From: Magallana gigas
Taxonomy: Eukaryota
Assembly (NCBI RefSeq): GCF_963853765.1
Contig: NC_088862.1
Coordinates: forward strand, 1,488,001 to 1,552,000
Direction of reading: 5' to 3'
DNA length: 64,000 nucleotides
Within the stretch, counting starts at the first letter, position 1, and every line of letters starts with the position of its first letter. A program made the position numbers and the translations under genes. Under the pieces are notes generated by a model. That model ran no database searches. It saw nothing but the letters and a program-made list of their open reading frames with translations, and was not told the origin of the DNA. Shown in pieces: positions 5,565 through 16,517 of this stretch.

Positions 5565-5822
5565 TGTTGTGTAGCCGAGAAACTACAAAACATATAGTTC
5601 AAATATCTGGTGTCTTACCTGACAATATGCGGCAGACAACAGACAATGGTAAAAATATATAAGGAAAAACAGGGTAACAGGTGTGGTGCGGTATACGGCA
5701 GGATCAGAACTGGAGCTCCAGTAGATTGGGGTGGACCATGTGACATCAGGGTAGACCAGGGTTAGAGGTCATACATAAAAATTAGCATACGTTGGGAGAA
5801 TACAGTACGTGTTTACACTACA
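5565..5822 (-). repeat. 3' LTR (258 bp)
   Basis: Matches 16260-16517 at 257 of 258 positions by eye (taaaaattag versus taaacattag). TG...CA termini. Confidence 0.97.
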
Positions 5823-5833
5823 CTCCTCCCCAT
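5823..5833 (-). other. Polypurine tract (PPT)
   Basis: Minus strand ATGGGGAGGAG directly precedes the TG of the 3' LTR. Confidence 0.9.
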
Positions 5834-6210
5834 TTTATAATGAAAAGACCAACGTATACTCTATCATACAATTATGGGAAAAAAGACCAATTTAAAGACC
5901 AACTTTATAGAAATATAATACCAACATATCCCTATCTTTTTAGCTCATATATAATGTATATATATATATATATATACACAGGTTTCCTCGCATAAATCTG
6001 GGCTGAAATTATCGGACCCTTAATGAAGCAGAGGAACACTTATAAAAACAGAGTAAACAATTATTATGTAGTGATAAATTCCACTCAAATTTGGACCGAA
6101 AAATATCCAGTCCTGGATCCAGCAGAAAAATACAAAATACATAACTATAGTGCATAGAGCTTACGACAGTTCTTCACAGTTTCATTGAGCAGATACCGCA
6201 CAGATATCTG

Positions 6211-8262
6211 TTACTTGGATGCAACTACGGTGGCCACGTCACCAATGAACGCCGGGGTATTTATGTATCCACCACCTGGCTTCATGTAGGGGGAATCTGT
6301 TTCCAGCAACATACGATTCATTGGGACTGCACGAAGTCCATCAATCTGGTCCGTACTGAAAGTCTCCACGGCACCTGTGAATCCAAAGTAAACATGTGAA
6401 AAACTGTTCATCCACTCCTTCACCAGCCTCGCATCGCCAGTAAAGCAATGAAGATGTATTGGTTGGTCAGGATCACAAGACGTATGCAATATCTGCATAC
6501 ACCGTGCATGCACATCCATCCCAATCCTGTCAGCGGGAGTTCCACGCAAGTGCAGAACGAGAACTTTGTCCTTTCGGCTAAGAGTTAACACTTGACATAG
6601 AACATCTTCCTGTCGCCTCCATAACTTTACTGGCACAGTTCGGTCCAACCCAACCTCTCCCAGAGCCACTACATGAGGACGGTTTAGTAGTTCTTTCATA
6701 TGGAGAAATCTGTCTCTGGAGAATTCCTCTATGTGCTTGGGGTGCACTCCCACAGCCACTCCCCAAGGTCGCTCAACAGACACTATCTCTGGATGGGTGG
6801 AGGGTTCACTATAAACGATCACTCCACCTGCGACAGATACGTCAAGTTGAGGATGTTGATTTCCAGATAAACTATAGGAAATGAGGTCATCTACAGATTT
6901 TCCTGATGATTTCTTCCAAATACGGAAACTAGTCCGATCCAAGTGGAAATGACTATCGAAGGCTTCATTCACTGTGATGATTTTTTCGTTGCAAACTTCT
7001 ACGTCTGAACCATAGCTAACATCAATCACGGTGAATTCGTCCTCAGTTGAAGAGTCTACCACTGGAACTTGACTGTCCTCTGTGTTAGTAGGATGTTTGA
7101 TATCACTTCTAACGCGCCCGTCTACACGAAATTCTTCGCGTTGAATAGGTGGTAACAGTGACAACAACACTACCAGGCATCTCCAATGGAAAAGTGCTGC
7201 GGGGGAATTAACAGGTGACACAGTAAATCCCTCTGGTGGTTCTGCCCATCCTTGAGGTACACTAAATTTCCTCATACAGGCGATGGTGTCCGGATGTACA
7301 CTAGTGTTCTTTGGAATCCCACCAGACTGATTCACATAATTAACAGCGCTATACACATCAGCATTTTGTCCCAAGGCACTTATCACCAAGGATATCAACG
7401 ATGAGTACTGGAGCTGGCATAACACAGACTCATCAATAGAACGAATAGGCTTAATGTCACTGAAAATTCTAGGAAGATGCTGGCGCTGGACATGACGCTT
7501 GATCTTTTTCTCCCTCTTAACACAATTTGGGAATGGACACAGCTGAGCAAGATGAGACGACGGTTTAGTTAGAACTGTTATGGATAAATTATGATCCATT
7601 CGAGCGCGCTTCGATCCGACATCCTGGGTACTTTGCTTTGCCTCCACATGACGTGCTGGGTGCATACGTTTACCAGGGTTGTGGATAACTGGTATGGGCT
7701 CAGGGAAAGTAGGTTCAGGTTCCCGTACATTCACCATCAATCCAGTTGGGGCTGAGATACCACATTCTTGATCCGCCGTGTCATGATCCGCAGAGGAATC
7801 TGCTTCACCATGCACTTCGGAAGAGTCCGAGATCTCCATTGAGCGGGCGTTTGAATCTGCTGCATTGGTACGCACTACTTCCAGATTTGGGTTCGTCTTA
7901 AGACGGATATCCACACACATTGAGGAAGTAGCTTCAGCAGTATGCGACGTTTTGGTTCTTCTGCTTCTGTGGTTACCTAGCAGGGAAGGAAGGTTATCGT
8001 CCACCCAACGGTCTGAACACAAAATGGTGGCAGTCTCCCGTCTGGTCGTCTCAATCCATCTACTATCTCCCAGGTCTTTGGCGAGTCTATACTGTCCTTT
8101 GAGTACCTCGCAAATAGTGGTATGTGATGTTCCATCACTGATGAGTCCAAGGTCATACACAAATGTTCTTGGATCAACAAGACTCCTCAAGGATGTTTTC
8201 CTCCTGACAAAGTCCAAGTAATGTTCACCTCTTTCCTGACGAATAGTAGATCTCCTGTACAT
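6211..8262 (-). CDS. tatD: Retrotransposon ORF3, 683 aa: unknown N-terminal domain, atypical C2H2-like finger and C-terminal TatD-family metallo-nuclease
   Basis: TatD motifs occur in the correct order: FDSHFHLD, GVHPKH, ALGEVGLD, VLHLR, LHCFTG, YFGFTG, LLETDSPY. The reading frame continues past the TAA for 22 TatD-like residues to a TAG at 6145. Confidence 0.9.
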   Translation of the reverse strand: MYRRSTIRQERGEHYLDFVRRKTSLRSLVDPRTFVYDLGLISDGTSHTTICEVLKGQYRLAKDLGDSRWIETTRRETATILCSDRWVDDNLPSLLGNHRSRRTKTSHTAEATSSMCVDIRLKTNPNLEVVRTNAADSNARSMEISDSSEVHGEADSSADHDTADQECGISAPTGLMVNVREPEPTFPEPIPVIHNPGKRMHPARHVEAKQSTQDVGSKRARMDHNLSITVLTKPSSHLAQLCPFPNCVKREKKIKRHVQRQHLPRIFSDIKPIRSIDESVLCQLQYSSLISLVISALGQNADVYSAVNYVNQSGGIPKNTSVHPDTIACMRKFSVPQGWAEPPEGFTVSPVNSPAALFHWRCLVVLLSLLPPIQREEFRVDGRVRSDIKHPTNTEDSQVPVVDSSTEDEFTVIDVSYGSDVEVCNEKIITVNEAFDSHFHLDRTSFRIWKKSSGKSVDDLISYSLSGNQHPQLDVSVAGGVIVYSEPSTHPEIVSVERPWGVAVGVHPKHIEEFSRDRFLHMKELLNRPHVVALGEVGLDRTVPVKLWRRQEDVLCQVLTLSRKDKVLVLHLRGTPADRIGMDVHARCMQILHTSCDPDQPIHLHCFTGDARLVKEWMNSFSHVYFGFTGAVETFSTDQIDGLRAVPMNRMLLETDSPYMKPGGGYINTPAFIGDVATVVASK

Positions 8263-8653
8263 TATGCACTATTTAAAGTTTACACAATCAAAATACTAAG
8301 AAAGTAATGAAATAATTCTAACTACCACACTATATTACCGAGTATGATAAAAGGTAGTTAAGTTATATTATGAAAAATGACCTAAATGATAATCTATAAA
8401 TGTGACATAACCCTGGTCTATAATATACTTTGGGTACAGTATACTTTCTCCTCCACTGAAATAAAAGATAAGGCATATTAAGCACTCCAAACTTTCAGTT
8501 TGCAAATGACTAAGCATATAACTTAAACTGAAGATCGGAACCAAAGATTATGATTAAAAACATACCAAAGTAATTTAACACAAAAATATATTAAAAGATT
8601 AAGTCATATATTTACAGATTTTACCACACGAATACCTCAGATATCACTGGCAC

Positions 8654-11600
8654 TTAATGCTCGCACTTTGGACACAAATAAAATGCTAACTGCTCTGCGA
8701 ATTCTTTACTTACTTTGACGCAGGAACCATGAAACCAATCGCGACATTCATCACATTGAATCATGAATGAACCCGTGTCTGGCCCGCGACAGATACAAAA
8801 CTGAGCGTTGTTAGTATCCACCGGAACTTTATTGACATGTTTTTGGATCCATTCCGGAAGGTGACGGTCTCTGCAGATCTTCATACGATCATGATTCATG
8901 GTTATAATTTTTCCGCGCAGTTTGACCTTGTATAAATACGCAGATAATTTCTCCACAACCACTCCAGGCCCTTTCCAAGATGGACTGAGTTTTCTGCACT
9001 TACCTTTAACTGTCGCAGTATCAAGTACGTAAACAGCATCTCCGACTTTATAAGGATGTTCCAAAGTCCGGAGATCATAGTCACGTTTCATGATGTTCTG
9101 CGTAGTTTTAAGGACATCTCTGGCGGTCTCATGTGCTGTGGTAATGGAGTTGGTCAAGTTAGCAAGATATTCATCCTGAGGTTGCTCTTCCCTCTGCCCT
9201 GGAAACACCAAATCTACTGGTTGAGTTGTTTCTCGACCGAGCATCAACATATTAGGGGTATAGCCCGTGCTCCGATTTACAGAAGACCGAAGGGCTGCTG
9301 CTATTTGTGGAATATACTCATCCCACTCTCTTGGTGTTTTGGAGACATAACATCTAACAGCATCCATCAGAGTTCTGTTAAACCTTTCGACTTGCCCATT
9401 TGCTGATGCTCTGAAAGGAGTCGTTCTGGTTTTATGGATTTCGAGCATCTTACACATTTTAGTGAAGAGTTCACTAGTGAAGTTGGTTCCCTGGTCTGTA
9501 AAAATCTGGAGAGGATAACCAAAGCGTGTAAAAAACTCATTAATGGCCGCACGAGCTGTTACTTCTGCCGTTTGCGCTGGTAATGGTATACACTCTACCC
9601 ATTTGGTAAACTGGTCAACCATCATCAGAATGTAACCATTGTGGTTTTTTGTAACAGGTAGAGGGCCCAAGAAATCCAAATGTACTCTTTCCATTGGCAC
9701 TCCTGCATGGAACTGGGTCATGTTACATCGAGCATGTCTTGTAGGTTTTTTATTCCTATTACATACTGCACAGGAGGTAACATAATTTTGAATATCCAAC
9801 GTCATAGAGTACCAATAGAACCGCTCCTTAATTCGACTCAAAGTCCTTACCACTCCCTGGTGACCCGCAGCGGGAATATCATGACACAGAGCCATGGCTT
9901 CTACTTGCATGGTTCCTGGGAGTACGAGGACTTTACCAGTATCTTCAGTTTTCCACAGCATGCCTTGTTCATCCAGTGTGAATAATTCTTTGTTAATCCA
10001 CAATGCTTTAGCTGCCTTAGACATAAGAAAAAGCTCATTATCAGGTTTAACTCCCGAGTCTAACCAATCTATCAAAATTTTTAGGTTAGTATCTTTATGC
10101 TGAGCCTCTTTAATGTCATTTGTGGAGTAATTCTGCAGCCACAAGTCATGGTTAACAAGCCTTACTTTGATTTTGCTTTCACACTGGGAGTCTTTATTCT
10201 CGGATGATTTAAGAACAGAAGCAAGAGGAATAACATCATCTACATCATTCAGGAACTCCCCCCAATTTCGGTGGGCACGTTGACAATAGTGACATCCCCC
10301 ACACGCCAGATCTTGCAGTTTAAAATCTGCTCGGTAGAAGGGACACTCATTGTCATATTTTATCCTGGATAATGCGTCAGCATTCAAATGTTTCTTGCCT
10401 TCCCTATGCTGAATCTTCATGTTGTATTGACTCAATTCTTCCATCCATCTAGCAAGTTGACCTTCTGGGTAACGGAAGTTGAGTAGCCATTGTAGACTAC
10501 TGTGATCCGTACGAATTGTAAACGGTCTTCCAAGCAGATAATAACGATAATACCTGGTAAAAGTCACTACTGCTAGCAACTCTTTGCGGGTTGTGCAATA
10601 TCGTTTTTGTTCAGGAAGAAGGCCAATACTAGCATAGGAAATTGTTCTTTCTTGACCATCTTGAATTTGCAGTAATTCTGCTCCCAGGGCATATTCAGAG
10701 GCATCTGTGTCAAGGATGAAGTGACCTTCTTTAGTGGGCAATGTAAGAACAGGAGCACTTGTGAGAGCCAGTTTTACTTTATCAAAAGCCGACTGTTGCT
10801 CATCACCCCAGTTAAACCTATTCTTACCTGTAACTGCGTACAAAGGTGCGATCATCTCAGCAAAGTCCTTAATAAAGTTCCTATGGTAGTTGGCAAACCC
10901 ACAGAAGCGTTCTACATCTTTGGTACAAAGGGGTATAGGCCAATTGTTCATTGTGTCTATATAACTTTGTCCAATACCCAACCCACTTCTGTTTACTGTG
11001 CGTCCTAGGAACTCTACTTCTTGTTTGAACAAAACACACTTCTTTGGTTTTAACTTTAGTCCAAATGACCTAAATCTTTTAAACACATCTGTAATGTTGT
11101 TGAGGTGTTCCTTAAAATCTTTGCCCAAAACAAGAATATCATCAAGGAATGCTAAGACGGTCTTCCAATGTAATCCCCGCAATACCAGATTCATTACTCT
11201 CGAGTATGTGCTTGGTGCATTACATAAACCAAACCCCATTCGGTTAAACTGGAACGTCCCATACTTGGTTATAAACGCAGTTTTTTCCTTATCCGAATTC
11301 TTGACTTTAATCTGTAAATAGGCCCAGTTTGCATCTAGTTTAGAAAACCAAAGATTCCCCGTCAGTGTATCTAGGCATTCGTCTACCAAAGGTAGAGGAA
11401 ATACATCTTTCTTGGTCACAGCATTTAATGCCCTGTAGTCTATACACCAACGTAGGGTTCCATCTTTTTTTCTAACTAGTACTGGCGCTGAAGCCCATTC
11501 AGAGGTTGAAGGTTCGATTACTCCTGCACCTAGCAATTTGTTGAGGTGTTTTTCTTCTTCATCCACATAGCAAACTGGTGTTCTTCGCAACCGTTGTTTA

Positions 11601-12595
11601 ATTGGCCTGGAATCTCCCGTATCTATGCTATGTTCTATTGTGGTGAAATTTCCTAGGTCAAATTCATTTGTTGCGAATACATCAGAGTATGAATGAAGAA
11701 CTGCTTGAAGTAGGTCCCTCTCTTCTGAGGAAAGGTGTTCTGAAGACCTAGCCAAAAGATCTTTCAAATGATCTGGTATCTCAACATCTGAGGAATCTGT
11801 GGTGGATTCTACTTTCTGGATTTTCACTGTCTCTGGATCACTGTCTGGCAAGACTTCATGTATAGAGTGAGCAAATCCCACTACTTGACCCTGCTTTAAC
11901 TTAACTTGTTTATTGGTCAAGTTAATCAGACAGAGAACAGGCGTTGATCCTCCTGTATGTAATGATCGTGGAGATAAGATAGAATTAAACTCTATTGGTT
12001 CAATAACGTAATCGCATGACATGACTGCACTACAAGGCAACCTCAGCACAGAACAAGGTGGCACTATTGCATTATTTGAAACTTTAACTTCTGCCACTTG
12101 TAAATTGCTGCAGCTGTCTATAGAACAACTCATGCGAAAACGCCCATGACCAATCTCGAGTTTACCATTACTCATATTGATGATTGCTCCATGCTGATAA
12201 AGAAAATCCAGTCCCAGTAACATATCATCTTCCACTGGTGCTACGTATACTTCATTTCCTGGAAATGTTTGCGACCCGATAACTATACTTACCGGCCCAA
12301 CCTTGTAACCAGACATCTTAAGATCCCGTCCTGCTGTATGTAAGATTACTTTACTCAAGGTAGGTGGTTTTACCTTGAGAGATTTATAGAGCCCGTCTGA
12401 GATTATGGTCACTTGAGCTGCGGTATCAATAATCGCTGCCACAGGTACCCCATTAATACTCAGATTAACTTTGATATTTGACGAGGACCTCATTCGTCTG
12501 ATAAATATCTCATTGGCCGGTCTTGTAACGTCTGCTAGGCCGCTGATATCAGGGATCGAAGAATGGCCTAATGCCCCGACCCCTTGTCGTTTCCC
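8654..12595 (-). CDS. pol: Pol polyprotein (aspartic protease, RT, RNase H, integrase, C-terminal PHD finger), probably made as Gag-Pol by -1 frameshift
   Basis: Protease [18 protein letters not shown], RNase H ILDTDAS and TDHSSL, integrase H-H-C-C plus [22 protein letters not shown], a WKGP motif, and the C4HC3 PHD [33 protein letters not shown]. The frame is open from the slippery site at 12595 (first Met at 12493). Confidence 0.96.
   Translation of the reverse strand, partial: [1313 protein letters not shown]
12535..12595 (-). promoter_or_regulatory. -1 programmed ribosomal frameshift signal: G GGA AAC heptamer plus H-type pseudoknot
   Basis: The heptamer (12589-12595) is in the gag frame, and a -1 slip enters the open pol frame. 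Stem 1 is AGGGGUCGGGG/CUUCGAUCCCU. Loop UAGGCC pairs with downstream GGCCUA. Confidence 0.85.
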
Positions 12596-15498
12596 TCTGG
12601 CTTAGCACCGTCTTCGAAGGACACTGATTTTGAAGGTTTATTCAATGCCTTAAGACTTGGACAAGCATTTCGGAAATGTCCAGTCCCTCCACAATGAAAA
12701 CATCTCAGATCTGGAGAGGGAGAGCGTGATGGAGACCTTGTCCGCTCAAAATTCCTCTGAGGACTCCGATTAAATCTGAATCTTTGTGGGCTTGCAGGCC
12801 TCTCTCTCACCAAAGCCTCCATCTTTTTCATAACGGCTTCAATACTACTGGCCAAAGATCCCATTTGATCCTCTAATTTGGTCATCCTTTGAGTAACTCC
12901 TTCTCCTTGAGATCTAGGAGGTCTTACTTGAGCGACGGTAGCGTGAGAACATGCAGATAATTCTGCATCTTCACCACAAACCGTAACTTCTCTTATATCC
13001 CTCCTTCCCTTTCCATAGATGGCATAATGATTATATTGGAAACTCTTGAGATTGTCAATAGTTTCCTCTATAGTCAACGGATGGAGATTAATGGCGTATT
13101 GCCCAGCCTCTTTGTCTGTGCATCCATGACATATACGCTTAATCGCTTGTTTAAGCATATAGTCCTCAGGTAGACCTTCATAAGCTCGAAGAGCCAGCTG
13201 AAAAACACGATCAGCCCACTCTTCCAGTCTTTCTCCAGACTCCTGAGACAAAGAATTGATTTTAAGCTGTGCAGTCTCAGGGATTTCTTTATAGCCAAAC
13301 CTTTTCTCCATTTTTTGCATAAGGTGACCAAACCCAATGTCTCCGTCCTGTGAGATGATAGTGGCGTAATATTCACTTGCCCTACCCTCCAAACACCATC
13401 CCAAGTAATCTCGTGATTCTTGGGGCCTCCAATTTCTGATCTCAGAAAACCGAGTAAACTTTTGTTGGAAAGCCTTCCAAGAATCTAAACCATCAAATTT
13501 CAATGTTTTTGGTAATGTATCTATGCGGTCAGCTCTTCTGGGTTGCTGGTTTATGTTTGCCTCAACTGGCTGTTGTGGTTGTGGTGGTTGTTGTATGTTT
13601 TGTTCTTGTTGTTGTGCATGTGGAATTGGTGGTTGTACAATATTTTGCACATGCATGTTTGCTGGTCTCTGAGGTTGCTGCTGTTGATGATGCAAGATGT
13701 GAGGTGGGAATGGCGTATGTGGTGCGGGTGTTTGTGGCTGAGGCTGAGCTGCATATGCTTGTGGTACATGTATTTGTTGTTGCTGTGCATGTAACTGCGG
13801 CATAGTTTGTACATTAAGTGGTATGTGTTGTGGCATTTGAATCATGTTTGTTGCCTGTTGTTGCAGTTGCTGCTGAGCAGGCACTGCCAGTTGGTGCACC
13901 TGATTTTGAGTTGGCTGATGTTGTACTGTAAATTGTGGTACATGATTTTGTGCCAATTGTTGTTGAAATGCATTTTGAGGTTGCTGAAATGCATGTTGTG
14001 GTTGCTGAAACGCATGTGGTGGTTGCTGAAATGCATGTTGTGGTTGCTGAAATGCATGTTGTGGTTGCTGAAATGCATGTTGTGGTTGCGGAAATGCATG
14101 TTGTGGTTGCGGAAATGCAGTGTTTGTGTGCCATTGTGTTGGTTGATGATATTGAATGGCATTGCTCAGAGCTTGATTTTGTGAATGTGCCACATTGTAT
14201 GTGTTCTGATGAATGTCATGTTGCTGTGGCAGTAAAAACTGGTTTGGATTGAACTGAACTTGCGGATATGATGGTTGCATAACATTGAGGTTAACACCCT
14301 GACCGCTAAACGGTAGATAACCGCTTTGGGGTAAAGGTGTACCTACAGTAGATGGTAACATGCTAGGAATTGCACCCATGCCATTAACTGGTAAATAACC
14401 GCTTTGTGGCATAGTTGCAGCCGTGGCATATGATACCATATTGGGATTTACAAACTGAGCATTTGGTACAGATGTACTGTTGTTTGGTTGCACATTATTA
14501 ATCATACCCTGAGATGCGGGTATGCCAGTGTAAGATGGTACCGACCCCTGGACACCAACCAGTAGGGGATTGCCAGATGTCTGTGACGGTAACCCACTAA
14601 CACTTGCATAACTTGATGTGACTTGATTTGGTAAGATTAAACCATGAGTACTTGACGGCATGTTTCCGACCTGTGTCTGGGAGTACGTACCCATAGCCAT
14701 AGACGCAACTTGTTCAGTTGGCATCAAACCATGTGCACCCGCCGGTAATATATAACCGCCCTGTGCCGCGGAATGAACACCAACTGATACATTTGTGTCA
14801 AATATTTCAGATTTGACAGGGACACCTGGTGTAGTACATACCCCAGATGACTCTGACCCAGTGATCTGAGAATGTTGAGTTGACATTTTGGGGAAAGGTG
14901 CACTTGGAATGCTACCATATGTAAATATGCCTGTAGTAGGTTGCATAGTCGACCCTTGAGGCACACCGGTATAGAGTGTACAAGGAACATTATTTAACAT
15001 AGTGTTTTCTGGTTCACTCTTAAACCCTGTACTCGTCGACACAGCAGGCCAGTTAAGTGATAATGTTTTTGGCCTAACATCCTTTGCCCCACTTTTCTCC
15101 CTGTTCTTGGTATCTATCATCTCTACCACCTGTGAACTGAGTGCACTAGGAGTAGTAGGAACAATTATTTCCTTTGATACATGCACCCCATTCACAGGCT
15201 CAAGAGATGTTAGAACTTCACTTTCTGGGAAAGATGGTGATAACTGCAAGTTATCCATCTGATTTTGAAGGGAAAAATTCAAATCTGGGTTTTCTTCATA
15301 GTTTATTACACCTGCATCTTCATCTGCAATCTTCGCGTGTTTAACTTGTTGTAATTCCTGGAGATTACGGATGTTTCCGGACGTTTCACGAAAAGCCACG
15401 ATGTTTTTGGCTACTGCAGGGCCCACTCCTCTGATCGTTTGGAGTGTATCGACATCAGCAAAATTAATACGAACGGCGTTTTCGCCACCTTGTGCCAT
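12568..15498 (-). CDS. gag: Gag, 976 aa: N-terminal ComEA-like helix-hairpin-helix, long Gln/Pro-rich region, capsid-like domain, CCHC knuckle
   Basis: N-terminus VRINFADVDTLQTIRGVGPAVAKNIVAFRETSGNIRNLQELQQVK, capsid-like KFDGLDSWKAFQQKF..LEGRASEYY, and zinc knuckle CFHCGGTGHFRNAC. Confidence 0.93.
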   Translation of the reverse strand: MAQGGENAVRINFADVDTLQTIRGVGPAVAKNIVAFRETSGNIRNLQELQQVKHAKIADEDAGVINYEENPDLNFSLQNQMDNLQLSPSFPESEVLTSLEPVNGVHVSKEIIVPTTPSALSSQVVEMIDTKNREKSGAKDVRPKTLSLNWPAVSTSTGFKSEPENTMLNNVPCTLYTGVPQGSTMQPTTGIFTYGSIPSAPFPKMSTQHSQITGSESSGVCTTPGVPVKSEIFDTNVSVGVHSAAQGGYILPAGAHGLMPTEQVASMAMGTYSQTQVGNMPSSTHGLILPNQVTSSYASVSGLPSQTSGNPLLVGVQGSVPSYTGIPASQGMINNVQPNNSTSVPNAQFVNPNMVSYATAATMPQSGYLPVNGMGAIPSMLPSTVGTPLPQSGYLPFSGQGVNLNVMQPSYPQVQFNPNQFLLPQQHDIHQNTYNVAHSQNQALSNAIQYHQPTQWHTNTAFPQPQHAFPQPQHAFQQPQHAFQQPQHAFQQPPHAFQQPQHAFQQPQNAFQQQLAQNHVPQFTVQHQPTQNQVHQLAVPAQQQLQQQATNMIQMPQHIPLNVQTMPQLHAQQQQIHVPQAYAAQPQPQTPAPHTPFPPHILHHQQQQPQRPANMHVQNIVQPPIPHAQQQEQNIQQPPQPQQPVEANINQQPRRADRIDTLPKTLKFDGLDSWKAFQQKFTRFSEIRNWRPQESRDYLGWCLEGRASEYYATIISQDGDIGFGHLMQKMEKRFGYKEIPETAQLKINSLSQESGERLEEWADRVFQLALRAYEGLPEDYMLKQAIKRICHGCTDKEAGQYAINLHPLTIEETIDNLKSFQYNHYAIYGKGRRDIREVTVCGEDAELSACSHATVAQVRPPRSQGEGVTQRMTKLEDQMGSLASSIEAVMKKMEALVRERPASPQRFRFNRSPQRNFERTRSPSRSPSPDLRCFHCGGTGHFRNACPSLKALNKPSKSVSFEDGAKPEGNDKGSGH
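13960..14120 (-). repeat. 21-bp coding tandem repeat in gag (PQHAFQQ x about 7-8)
   Basis: gttgctgaaatgcatgttgtg units on the plus strand translate as PQHAF(P/Q)Q. Confidence 0.9.
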
Positions 15499-16246
15499 TT
15501 TGTGATATCTGATGGTTTACAATGTTTTATAATAGATAGCAATAGCTAATAACAAATGAAAACGATTTGAGTAATCTTTGGAATAAATTTTTGAAAAATT
15601 TTTAAGTCAAAAAAGTCGAAAATAAAATTGCCAAAAAATTAGAGAATTATAAAACGTATTGACGTACAATAATGCACTTCAAATAATTGAAAATGTATAA
15701 TCTATTCGCAAAAACTTAGAATCTAAATGAAAAACAAGTACTAATAAATGAAAACCTCGAAAAAATTCAAAACCGGAAGTTATAAACAGTTGTTTACATT
15801 TAACCGGAAAGGTATTCCCCCGATACGTCACAAAATGGCGCCAAATATTTATAAAACAAAATGGCGTCCGTCAAAATGACATGAGGTTTGACAATAATAC
15901 GAATTTTGCGAAATTACTTAAGGAATAGAATATTTACTAAATTTTCGTCGATAGTACGTTTAACAACGCAAGAAACCGACAAATTACAAATGAAATTATA
16001 AGTGAGTTCTGTACACCACGTTATGTATATCACCACGTGCTATAACTGTCAGCACGTCGTGACAAAAATAGAAATACACTAATAATATGAACACAGTCAA
16101 ATTGTAGGAATAACGCACCTGACGCTTATAATAAACGTCCAATGCAAACAAATATTCCTAAGACGACAATGTGATACAAAAAATCCAACCGGCAATATGT
16201 TATCACCGTGTGGTCAAAAATATACAAAGATAAACAAAAATGTTTA

Positions 16247-16258
16247 CCGGCGACGCCA
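16247..16258 (-). other. Primer-binding site
   Basis: Minus strand TGGCGTCGCCGG begins 1 nt after the CA of the 5' LTR. TGG is complementary to the tRNA CCA end. The primer tRNA is not identified (a G discriminator would fit Ser). Confidence 0.8.
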
Positions 16259-16259
16259 A

Positions 16260-16517
16260 TGTTGTGTAGCCGAGAAACTACAAAACATATAGTTCAAATA
16301 TCTGGTGTCTTACCTGACAATATGCGGCAGACAACAGACAATGGTAAAAATATATAAGGAAAAACAGGGTAACAGGTGTGGTGCGGTATACGGCAGGATC
16401 AGAACTGGAGCTCCAGTAGATTGGGGTGGACCATGTGACATCAGGGTAGACCAGGGTTAGAGGTCATACATAAACATTAGCATACGTTGGGAGAATACAG
16501 TACGTGTTTACACTACA
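16260..16517 (-). repeat. 5' LTR (258 bp)
   Basis: Direct repeat of 5565-5822. Confidence 0.97.

Follow-up and report, generated by a model that had tools for sequence, protein, structure and literature searches.

Why would a long terminal repeat (LTR) retrotransposon carry a nuclease gene in the place where others carry env? The question is raised by a stretch of 64,000 nucleotides (nt) of the Magallana gigas genome (contig NC_088862.1, positions 1,488,001 to 1,552,000; hereafter the window), which holds a Ty3/gypsy element of 10,953 nt on the minus strand with a TatD domain in its third open reading frame (ORF3), between pol and the 3' LTR. The lineage of TatD-bearing ORF3 genes to which it belongs is real, conserved and apparently undescribed.

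ORF3 encodes a class II TatD domain with all active-site residues

The original prediction had read TatD motifs from the sequence of this locus, and all of them (HxH, E, H, H and D) were confirmed in frame, in TatD order, without introns and on the same strand as pol. In the numbering of the 705-amino-acid (aa) family protein, the active-site residues are H438/H440 (DSHFH), E536 (GEVGLD), H571 (LHLR), H605 (LHCF) and E654/D656 (ETDSP). The ligand set of class II (HxH) TatD proteins, as defined in PMC10085689, is complete, with HxH, the bridging Glu, two His and Asp. A profile search identified Pfam TatD_DNase (PF01026; E 9.5e-35, 120.6 bits against a cut-off of 27), the top PDB sequence match of the domain was E. 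coli YcfH (E 3.5e-15), and the predicted structure is a TIM-barrel that matches TatD crystal structures (Foldseek E 3e-15). At the level of sequence and predicted fold, the window ORF3 is confirmed to carry a class II TatD domain in the env position. The gene first outlined at 6145..6966 was real as a TatD but wrong as a free-standing ORF, since the domain is the C-terminal third of ORF3 (8262-6211). It does precede the polypurine tract (PPT), with about 308 untranslated nt between its natural end and the PPT rather than directly abutting it.

AlphaFold modelling of ORF3 gave three confident domains (residues 11-95, 240-381 and 433-705) with disordered linkers between them. No Pfam family was found for the N-terminal domain. 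Foldseek searches of the non-TatD domains against PDB and BFVD returned nothing at E <=0.001, the core being barely tested as it was not folded alone. The best VIA-align match (Z 7.1, root mean square deviation 3.3, 92 residues aligned) was to unrelated helical bundles and covered the N-terminal domain only, and ESM Atlas scores for a core query did not exceed 0.84. A capsid-like N-terminal domain, suggested by a gag-like neighbour in ESM Atlas, was rejected after profile comparison (hhalign probability 1.3%, E 0.04). ORF3 showed no signal peptide or clear membrane segment (hydrophilic N-terminus; maximum KD19 1.68, inside the folded core) and no match to a fusion protein. An acidic hydrophobic motif in the linker before TatD is enriched (17 of 50 against 1.0 expected; 10 LIR-like against 3.1) and resembles SUMO- or ATG8-binding motifs. 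As it is nearly confined to the subclade of the window, it was not used as evidence.

A premature stop in the window copy

An in-frame stop at 6211-6213, which had been missed at first reading, ends the window ORF3 22 codons ahead of the natural end of the family at 6145. Every ligand precedes it, and the earlier statement that all metal ligands are retained holds. Among the 15 cluster members listed, only the window's own record has this stop; nine members are 705 aa long, and a 701-aa and two 504-aa members also extend to the natural end. All three sequencing runs that cover the site have a different letter there, and in other genomic copies the codon is a sense codon in four of five checked and a different stop in the fifth. 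The decayed copy L013 (C4:0.08M) has another stop triplet at this codon, so that the two stops arose independently. With the tail, the window copy loses N698, conserved in at least 90%, and the final helix of the prediction (688-703); this C-terminal helix, complete in the natural 705-aa relatives, is absent in the window copy, which probably makes a weakened, truncated protein.

The 504-aa proteins represent a natural variant with an in-frame deletion of 603 nt (window 7610-8212), in which the N-terminal domain is gone and the core and TatD are kept. Besides run X4, sets of 32 and 7 contigs carry it. An intron was considered for the 603-nt skip in this run and rejected, as there is no GT-AG on the sense strand; we read it as a deletion.

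TatD in ORF3 is a trait of a gypsy lineage

The TatD domain matched 45 places in the oyster genome. Pieces of pol or PHD were found within 1.5 kb in 14 of the 30 genomic TatD loci examined, and wider fetches added five. TatD follows pol in at least six gypsy families of this genome, with 23-32% identity to the window ORF3, and in one TatD family three copies have gag, pol and ORF3 all open, with LTRs 100% identical. Beyond this genome, 234 representatives (50% clustering) were detected at E <=1e-30. Homologous proteins with a species label are from oysters, pearl oyster, scallop, Mya, Haliotis, Lytechinus and Ptychodera, and almost identical ones carry the labels Magallana gigas and M. angulata. 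Among 110 environmental loci the ORF3 core was present in 42, of which 14 extend more than 2.2 kb upstream; all 14 have pol in that upstream part, on the same strand.

Two further groups of matches were set aside. A bacterial origin was considered for 17 contig matches in metagenome-assembled genomes (MAGs) titled Sedimenticola or Ca. Thiodiazotropha and rejected: these are probably animal DNA, because seven of the 17 carry pol pieces upstream. Matches in viral contigs, plasmids and phages were ordinary TatD-like genes with 24-31% identity, and the 13 viral-contig loci had neither core nor pol. In the oyster genome, decayed TatD fragments form a tandem array (L057-L058, C5:4.50M), and two tandem intronless host genes, 71% identical to each other, were labelled TATDN3-like from a motif reading (L051, C2:45.156M).

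The domain is under purifying selection and co-inherited with pol

All seven active-site residues were present in 115 of 132 full TatD domains (from 190 proteins) and in 14 of the 18 pol-adjacent domains; several of the exceptions belong to a long, enzyme-dead group. The ratio of non-synonymous to synonymous substitution (dN/dS) was 0.11-0.49 with a median of 0.22 in 11 pairs at dS 0.1-0.5, which are not independent of each other. Very recent pairs, which differ by few changes, gave 0.21-0.46; in distant pairs dS was saturated and dN was 0.16-0.43. Neutral evolution across copies, which the original prediction had listed among the refuting outcomes, is contradicted by the retention of residues throughout the clade and by dN/dS values that stay below 1 in all measurable pairs. 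Integrase and TatD distances correlate across 18 elements (Mantel r 0.66, p 0.0004). These comparisons show a TatD domain that is under purifying selection and co-inherited with pol.

TatD is an optional enzyme on a constant core

Upstream of TatD, ORF3 contains a core with a zinc finger and a helical domain. It was found in 96 of the 97 homologs having more than 200 residues before TatD, and the pattern C2H2-[LVIFM]P in 73 of 80. A core profile matched 142 places in the sequences searched, with no match in reversed controls or in the host TATDN2 proteins searched. The core is a new, hitherto undescribed conserved domain and probably the actual adaptor.

For a reverse transcriptase (RT) tree, 40 RT relatives were fetched; the tree has 56 rows, five having been dropped as short or absent, and its root is arbitrary. 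One clade of 38 rows (SH-aLRT 98) contains every carrier of core or TatD: 21 rows of TatD families, 11 with the core only, three with the core and an SGNH-like domain, one with the core and a metallo-beta-lactamase (MBL) domain, and two with neither, the labels being our own reading. Two RT subclades mirror two TatD subclades. Together with the correlation of integrase and TatD distances, this means that the ancestor of the clade probably had TatD, with several later losses or replacements. The LTRs of core-only and SGNH copies are 97-100% identical in 10 of 13 examined, and in the other three no LTR pair was found. Since these TatD-less copies have such similar LTRs, TatD is unnecessary for recent mobility, with help in trans possible. 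Dispensability and swapping are shown across these families, in which TatD appears as an optional accessory enzyme on the constant zinc-finger/helical core.

The replacement enzymes differ in kind. In an MBLAC1-like family of decayed gypsy elements, the core is fused to a metallo-beta-lactamase fold (L079, C2:27.95M, C6:43.94M, C5:54.96M, C5:54.91M). Core and MBL were found together at four loci, and the top PDB match of the MBL domain was human MBLAC1 (4v0h, E 6.6e-10), an endoribonuclease (PMC6303110). A probable host gene with split matches lies at C8:13.98M. A recent gypsy family with LTRs 98-100% identical (L087-L089) has a divergent core (weak homology, E 0.007) and an SGNH/GDSL-like domain, reminiscent of the bdelloid ORF3s. 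Small C2H2 zinc-finger ORF3s were seen in more distant gypsy relatives (L091, L095, L097-L100, L104, L105, L109).

Some ORF3 copies stand apart from pol. L002 (145-2325; C8:16.27M) is an intact ORF3 of 727 codons that retains every ligand. The 9 kb upstream of it contain no pol, it is flanked by LTR-like remnants only 65-79% alike, and its cluster has 133 members. In a neutral null, none of 1000 frames stayed open at 10% divergence, and we regard L002 as a candidate domesticated gene. A second intact pol-less ORF3 of 732 codons has no LTR found (L008, C5:57.04M). L035 (C9:29.74M), an ORF of 1177 codons with two core domains and a TatD without ligands, is a candidate domesticated pseudo-enzyme; its counterpart in Ostrea edulis is 77% identical in the dead TatD, and an ORF of 548 codons with a B-box-like start overlaps it on the other strand.

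The TatD domain is probably an old capture from TATDN2

A careful tree of 56 rows, from which 30 of 86 were omitted as redundant or long and which is without full animal TATDN1, placed the element TatDs in one clade (support 99/92), sister to animal TATDN2 (98/87; TATDN2 itself 100/99). A quick tree of all 86 rows agreed, with the elements sister to TATDN2 and not nested in it. TATDN2 is the nearest relative for 38 of 40 element domains, which have its IHxHCF and W...F signatures in common, and mean identity to TATDN3, YcfH and YjjV is 21-26%. The TATDN2 link is the best-supported origin by tree and nearest-relative identity, and an origin from YcfH was rejected by the approximately unbiased (AU) test (p 0.008). 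Identity to oyster TATDN2 is 32% and limited to the domain, with no match outside it. Host TATDN2-like genes are multi-exon, and the element ORF3 is intronless and mobile. With the single element clade, these observations rule out that ORF3 is a retrocopy recently made from a host TATDN gene, a possibility raised by the original prediction. The capture is therefore old, and its source was probably TATDN2.

Architecture of the host element

The element has TG...CA LTRs, a primer binding site (PBS) for a tRNA, a PPT, a pol in the order protease, RT, RNase H, integrase, and a gag with a knuckle, as expected of Ty3/gypsy (Table 1). One mismatch separates its LTRs, which indicates a very recent insertion. 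The flanks GATA and TATA agree at three of four bases, and related elements show 4-bp target duplications.

Table 1. Coordinates of the TatD-bearing Ty3/gypsy element in the window.
Feature	Position	Strand	Remark
5' LTR, TG...CA, 258 nt	16260..16517	-	one mismatch to 3' LTR
Splice-donor-like CAG|GTAAGA (canonical), 5' LTR position 205	16313	-	motif
PBS, complementary to 3' end of tRNA-Ser(AGA)	16245..16258	-	
gag, open frame: N-terminal helix-hairpin-helix, Q/P-rich region, PNMA-like capsid, CCHC knuckle	12568..15498	-	
pol, open frame of 1315 codons between stops: protease, RT, RNase H, integrase, C-terminal PHD finger	8654..12601	-	
Candidate splice acceptors (two), 6 and 33 nt before the ATG of ORF3	8269..8297	-	predicted
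ORF3, 683 codons, ATG to premature stop	6211..8262	-	natural family length 705 aa
N-terminal domain of ORF3 (residues 11-95), five helices, not in a known family	7978..8232	-	pLDDT >90
ORF3 core, residues 238-391: C2H2-type zinc finger and helical domain, P-x-x-L-x-x-W motif	7090..7551	-	
TatD domain, class II (HxH)	6214..6966	-	seven of seven active-site residues
Premature stop codon of window copy	6211..6213	-	
In-frame remainder of family C-terminus, lost from window copy	6145..6210	-	
PPT	5823..5836	-	
3' LTR	5565..5822	-	

A non-autonomous family of about 6 kb (all nine short copies examined; C9:8.03M, C7:52.36M, C5:1.40M, C1:4.34M and others, L262-L270) has LTRs 86-88% like those of the window element, with the same PBS, PPT and donor, and its LTR pairs are 99-100% identical. 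It is without pol or TatD and has a long Q/P-rich ORF related to the N-terminal half of gag, and a scrap of the core in eight of the nine. The window also contains a second, broken gypsy-type element on the minus strand (553-2949; gag end, protease, RT and integrase pieces) and, at 30482-30796, inverted repeats flanking a tRNA-Ser-like sequence (30507-30580), probably a small repeat element.

Expression and localisation signals

Donors similar to that at LTR position 205 occur in several other families, and 18 of 23 ORF3s have a YAG no more than 15 nt from their first ATG, against a background of 41% for all ATGs (p 3e-4). Two runs gave 106 and 185 raw RNA reads over the element, each from about 12.9 million records (about 1% of the run). 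The depth of RNA-labelled contigs over the stretch is 21-67, a value without a silent control for comparison, and a loose read end near the donor had no match among the loci compared. An NLS-like (nuclear localisation signal) motif precedes the zinc finger in 35 of 68 sequences, against 14.8 expected.

Relation to known systems

The closest known case is that of the bdelloid Juno/Vesta LTR retrotransposons, which likewise have an enzymatic ORF3 in the env position with intact catalytic residues, of the DEDDy 3'-5' exonuclease or GDSL/SGNH type (PMC5408684). The oyster nuclease is a TIM-barrel TatD, unrelated to the DEDDy fold; in the oyster lineage, which is marine, the enzyme that is swapped sits on a zinc-finger/helical core that stays constant. 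This lineage shows clear purifying selection, whereas the bdelloid study found no significant deviation from neutrality within the genome (PMC5408684). Human TATDN2 (PMC10711561) shares the class II HxH and a long N-terminal extension, and its E593, E705 and D707 correspond to E536, E654 and D656; in contrast, the N-terminus of the element protein consists of element-specific folded domains, its gene is intronless and mobile, and even oyster TATDN2 is only 32% identical in the domain. TATDN3, YcfH and YjjV have the HxH, the two-metal ligand set and the TIM-barrel in common with the element TatD (PMC10085689). QatD of the QatABCD anti-phage system is a type II TatD co-opted into genetic conflict in a bacterial defence operon (PMC13434339), and the element domain did not reach the QatD family threshold (NCBIfam NF041926, 48 bits against a cut-off of 230). 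The env genes of errantiviruses and retroviruses occupy the same slot between pol and 3' LTR, and ORF3 would probably, like them, be made from a spliced subgenomic message, but it encodes an enzyme and is without signal peptide, clear membrane segment or fusion protein match. We found no report of a TatD in a retrotransposon in the literature covered, to which Repbase entries, most subscription papers and supplements did not belong; the available portions of a mollusc LTR survey (PMC6238403), an errantivirus study (PMC13524379) and the Troyka paper (PMC12440569) discuss no such ORF.

What the nuclease may do for the element

With a probability of roughly 0.4, we read ORF3 as an old, selectively kept accessory gene in which the core is joined to a TATDN2-related nuclease, likely a nuclear, retargeted 3'-5' RNase that would help the element in a step other than reverse transcription. 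ORF3 would be made from an env-type spliced message, from the LTR donor to an acceptor just before its ATG, and would enter the nucleus by its basic NLS-like motif. The core would stand in for the substrate-binding N-terminus of TATDN2 and dock on the element's chromatin, its RNA or a silencing complex, and the TatD domain may trim RNA at the docking site, so removing R-loops or scaffolds of nascent RNA by which the element would be stalled or silenced. The human TATDN2 enzyme acts on the RNA of R-loops, with little DNase activity and minimal activity on plain RNA:DNA duplexes, and without its N-terminus its R-loop binding is no longer detectable (PMC10711561). The nuclear RNase reading is suggested by this R-loop activity, by the RNase-like nature of one replacement enzyme and by NLS-like motifs without a secretion signal. 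The original prediction of a TatD metallo-nuclease in the env position stands, and the domain is kept by selection; the predicted roles in reverse transcription are less supported, because TatD-less sister families were recently mobile, the element has its own RNase H, and TATDN2 is weak on RNA:DNA duplexes and DNA. The destruction of cytosolic cDNA is likewise less supported and fits poorly with the NLS-like motifs.

Several observations weigh against the nuclear RNase reading. TATDN3 and bacterial class II paralogs are DNA exonucleases or apurinic/apyrimidinic (AP) endonucleases (PMC10085689), and the substrate can therefore not be read from the ligands. AU tests did not reject a grouping of the elements with host TATDN3 (p 0.22) or a position nested with bivalve TATDN2 (p 0.11). 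The RNA reads were sparse and in both directions, no splice joint for an ORF3 message was found in four shallow runs, and the NLS match relies on a loose pattern. SGNH is no nuclease, and the SGNH-like assignment (E 6e-4) is itself below the cut-off. Finally, in the core-only copy L072 the core is in frame with integrase and PHD, which favours a role linked to integration.

Such a role, in which ORF3 would move with the integration complex and TatD would act on DNA, be it the 3' ends of the cDNA, which it would trim, abasic or uracil-derived sites, which it would open, or the integration gap, which it would help to repair, is somewhat unlikely. TATDN1, TATDN3 and E. coli TatD proteins combine 3'-5' exonuclease and AP endonuclease activity (PMC10085689), but TATDN2, the nearest relative, has little DNase activity. 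The arrangement in L072 is accompanied by cores in frame with integrase pieces in L071 and L081, whereas elsewhere among the core-only copies the core is out of frame or follows a stop. The helix-hairpin-helix domain of gag and the PHD finger of pol would suit this role, as would the weak gag-like ESM Atlas neighbour of the N-terminal domain (0.90; Retrotrans_gag on 12% of members), but the comparison of that domain with capsid was not significant, and the recent mobility of TatD-less sisters again speaks against it.

Host TREX1 hides retroviral DNA, and by analogy ORF3 might destroy surplus element cDNA or RNA, or small RNAs, and so evade innate sensing or small-RNA amplification. We consider this counter-defence quite unlikely, as the NLS-like motifs point to a nuclear protein and the selection seen is purifying, without signs of rapid change in the TatD domain. 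An optional, swappable enzyme slot is nevertheless typical of cargo in host conflict, 3'-5' exonucleases were independently captured by bdelloid elements (PMC5408684), and TatD was co-opted for bacterial conflict as QatD (PMC13434339).

Alternatively, ORF3 could curb competing or parasitic elements, or its own copy number, by decay of retroelement RNA or cDNA, with some copies domesticated by the host as restriction factors. Copies of the non-autonomous family, whose LTRs are similar, far outnumber those of the autonomous element, and an intact pol-less ORF3 persists between degenerate LTR remnants in a cluster of 133 members. This is improbable, however, as the non-autonomous family thrives alongside and self-limiting elements are expected to be out-competed (PMC5408684). 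A neutral passenger or recent processed host copy, to which the premature stop of the window and the many decayed genomic copies could point, is highly improbable given the low, domain-limited identity to multi-exon host TATDN2, the residue retention, the dN/dS values and the co-inheritance with pol.

An extended form of the nuclear RNase reading, which we consider unlikely, would give the marine gypsy lineage of molluscs, echinoderms and hemichordates a programmable effector gene, made of the core as a targeting domain and a plug-in enzyme slot. The slot would have held a TATDN2-derived R-loop RNase first and an MBLAC1-like RNase or SGNH hydrolase later; the effector would strip silencing RNA scaffolds from the element's own loci and would have been domesticated at least twice in oysters.

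The TatD lineage makes the role of non-env ORF3 genes in LTR retrotransposons testable, as it offers a nuclease whose catalytic residues are known and, within one genome, natural controls with the core only, with the core and an MBLAC1-like or SGNH domain, and with a dead enzyme. Many gene models annotated 'TatD' or 'TATDN-like' in bivalves, sea urchins and symbiont MAGs are probably retrotransposon cargo. If ORF3 does remove R-loops or the RNA of silencing, an animal retrotransposon would here have an anti-silencing enzyme of its own.

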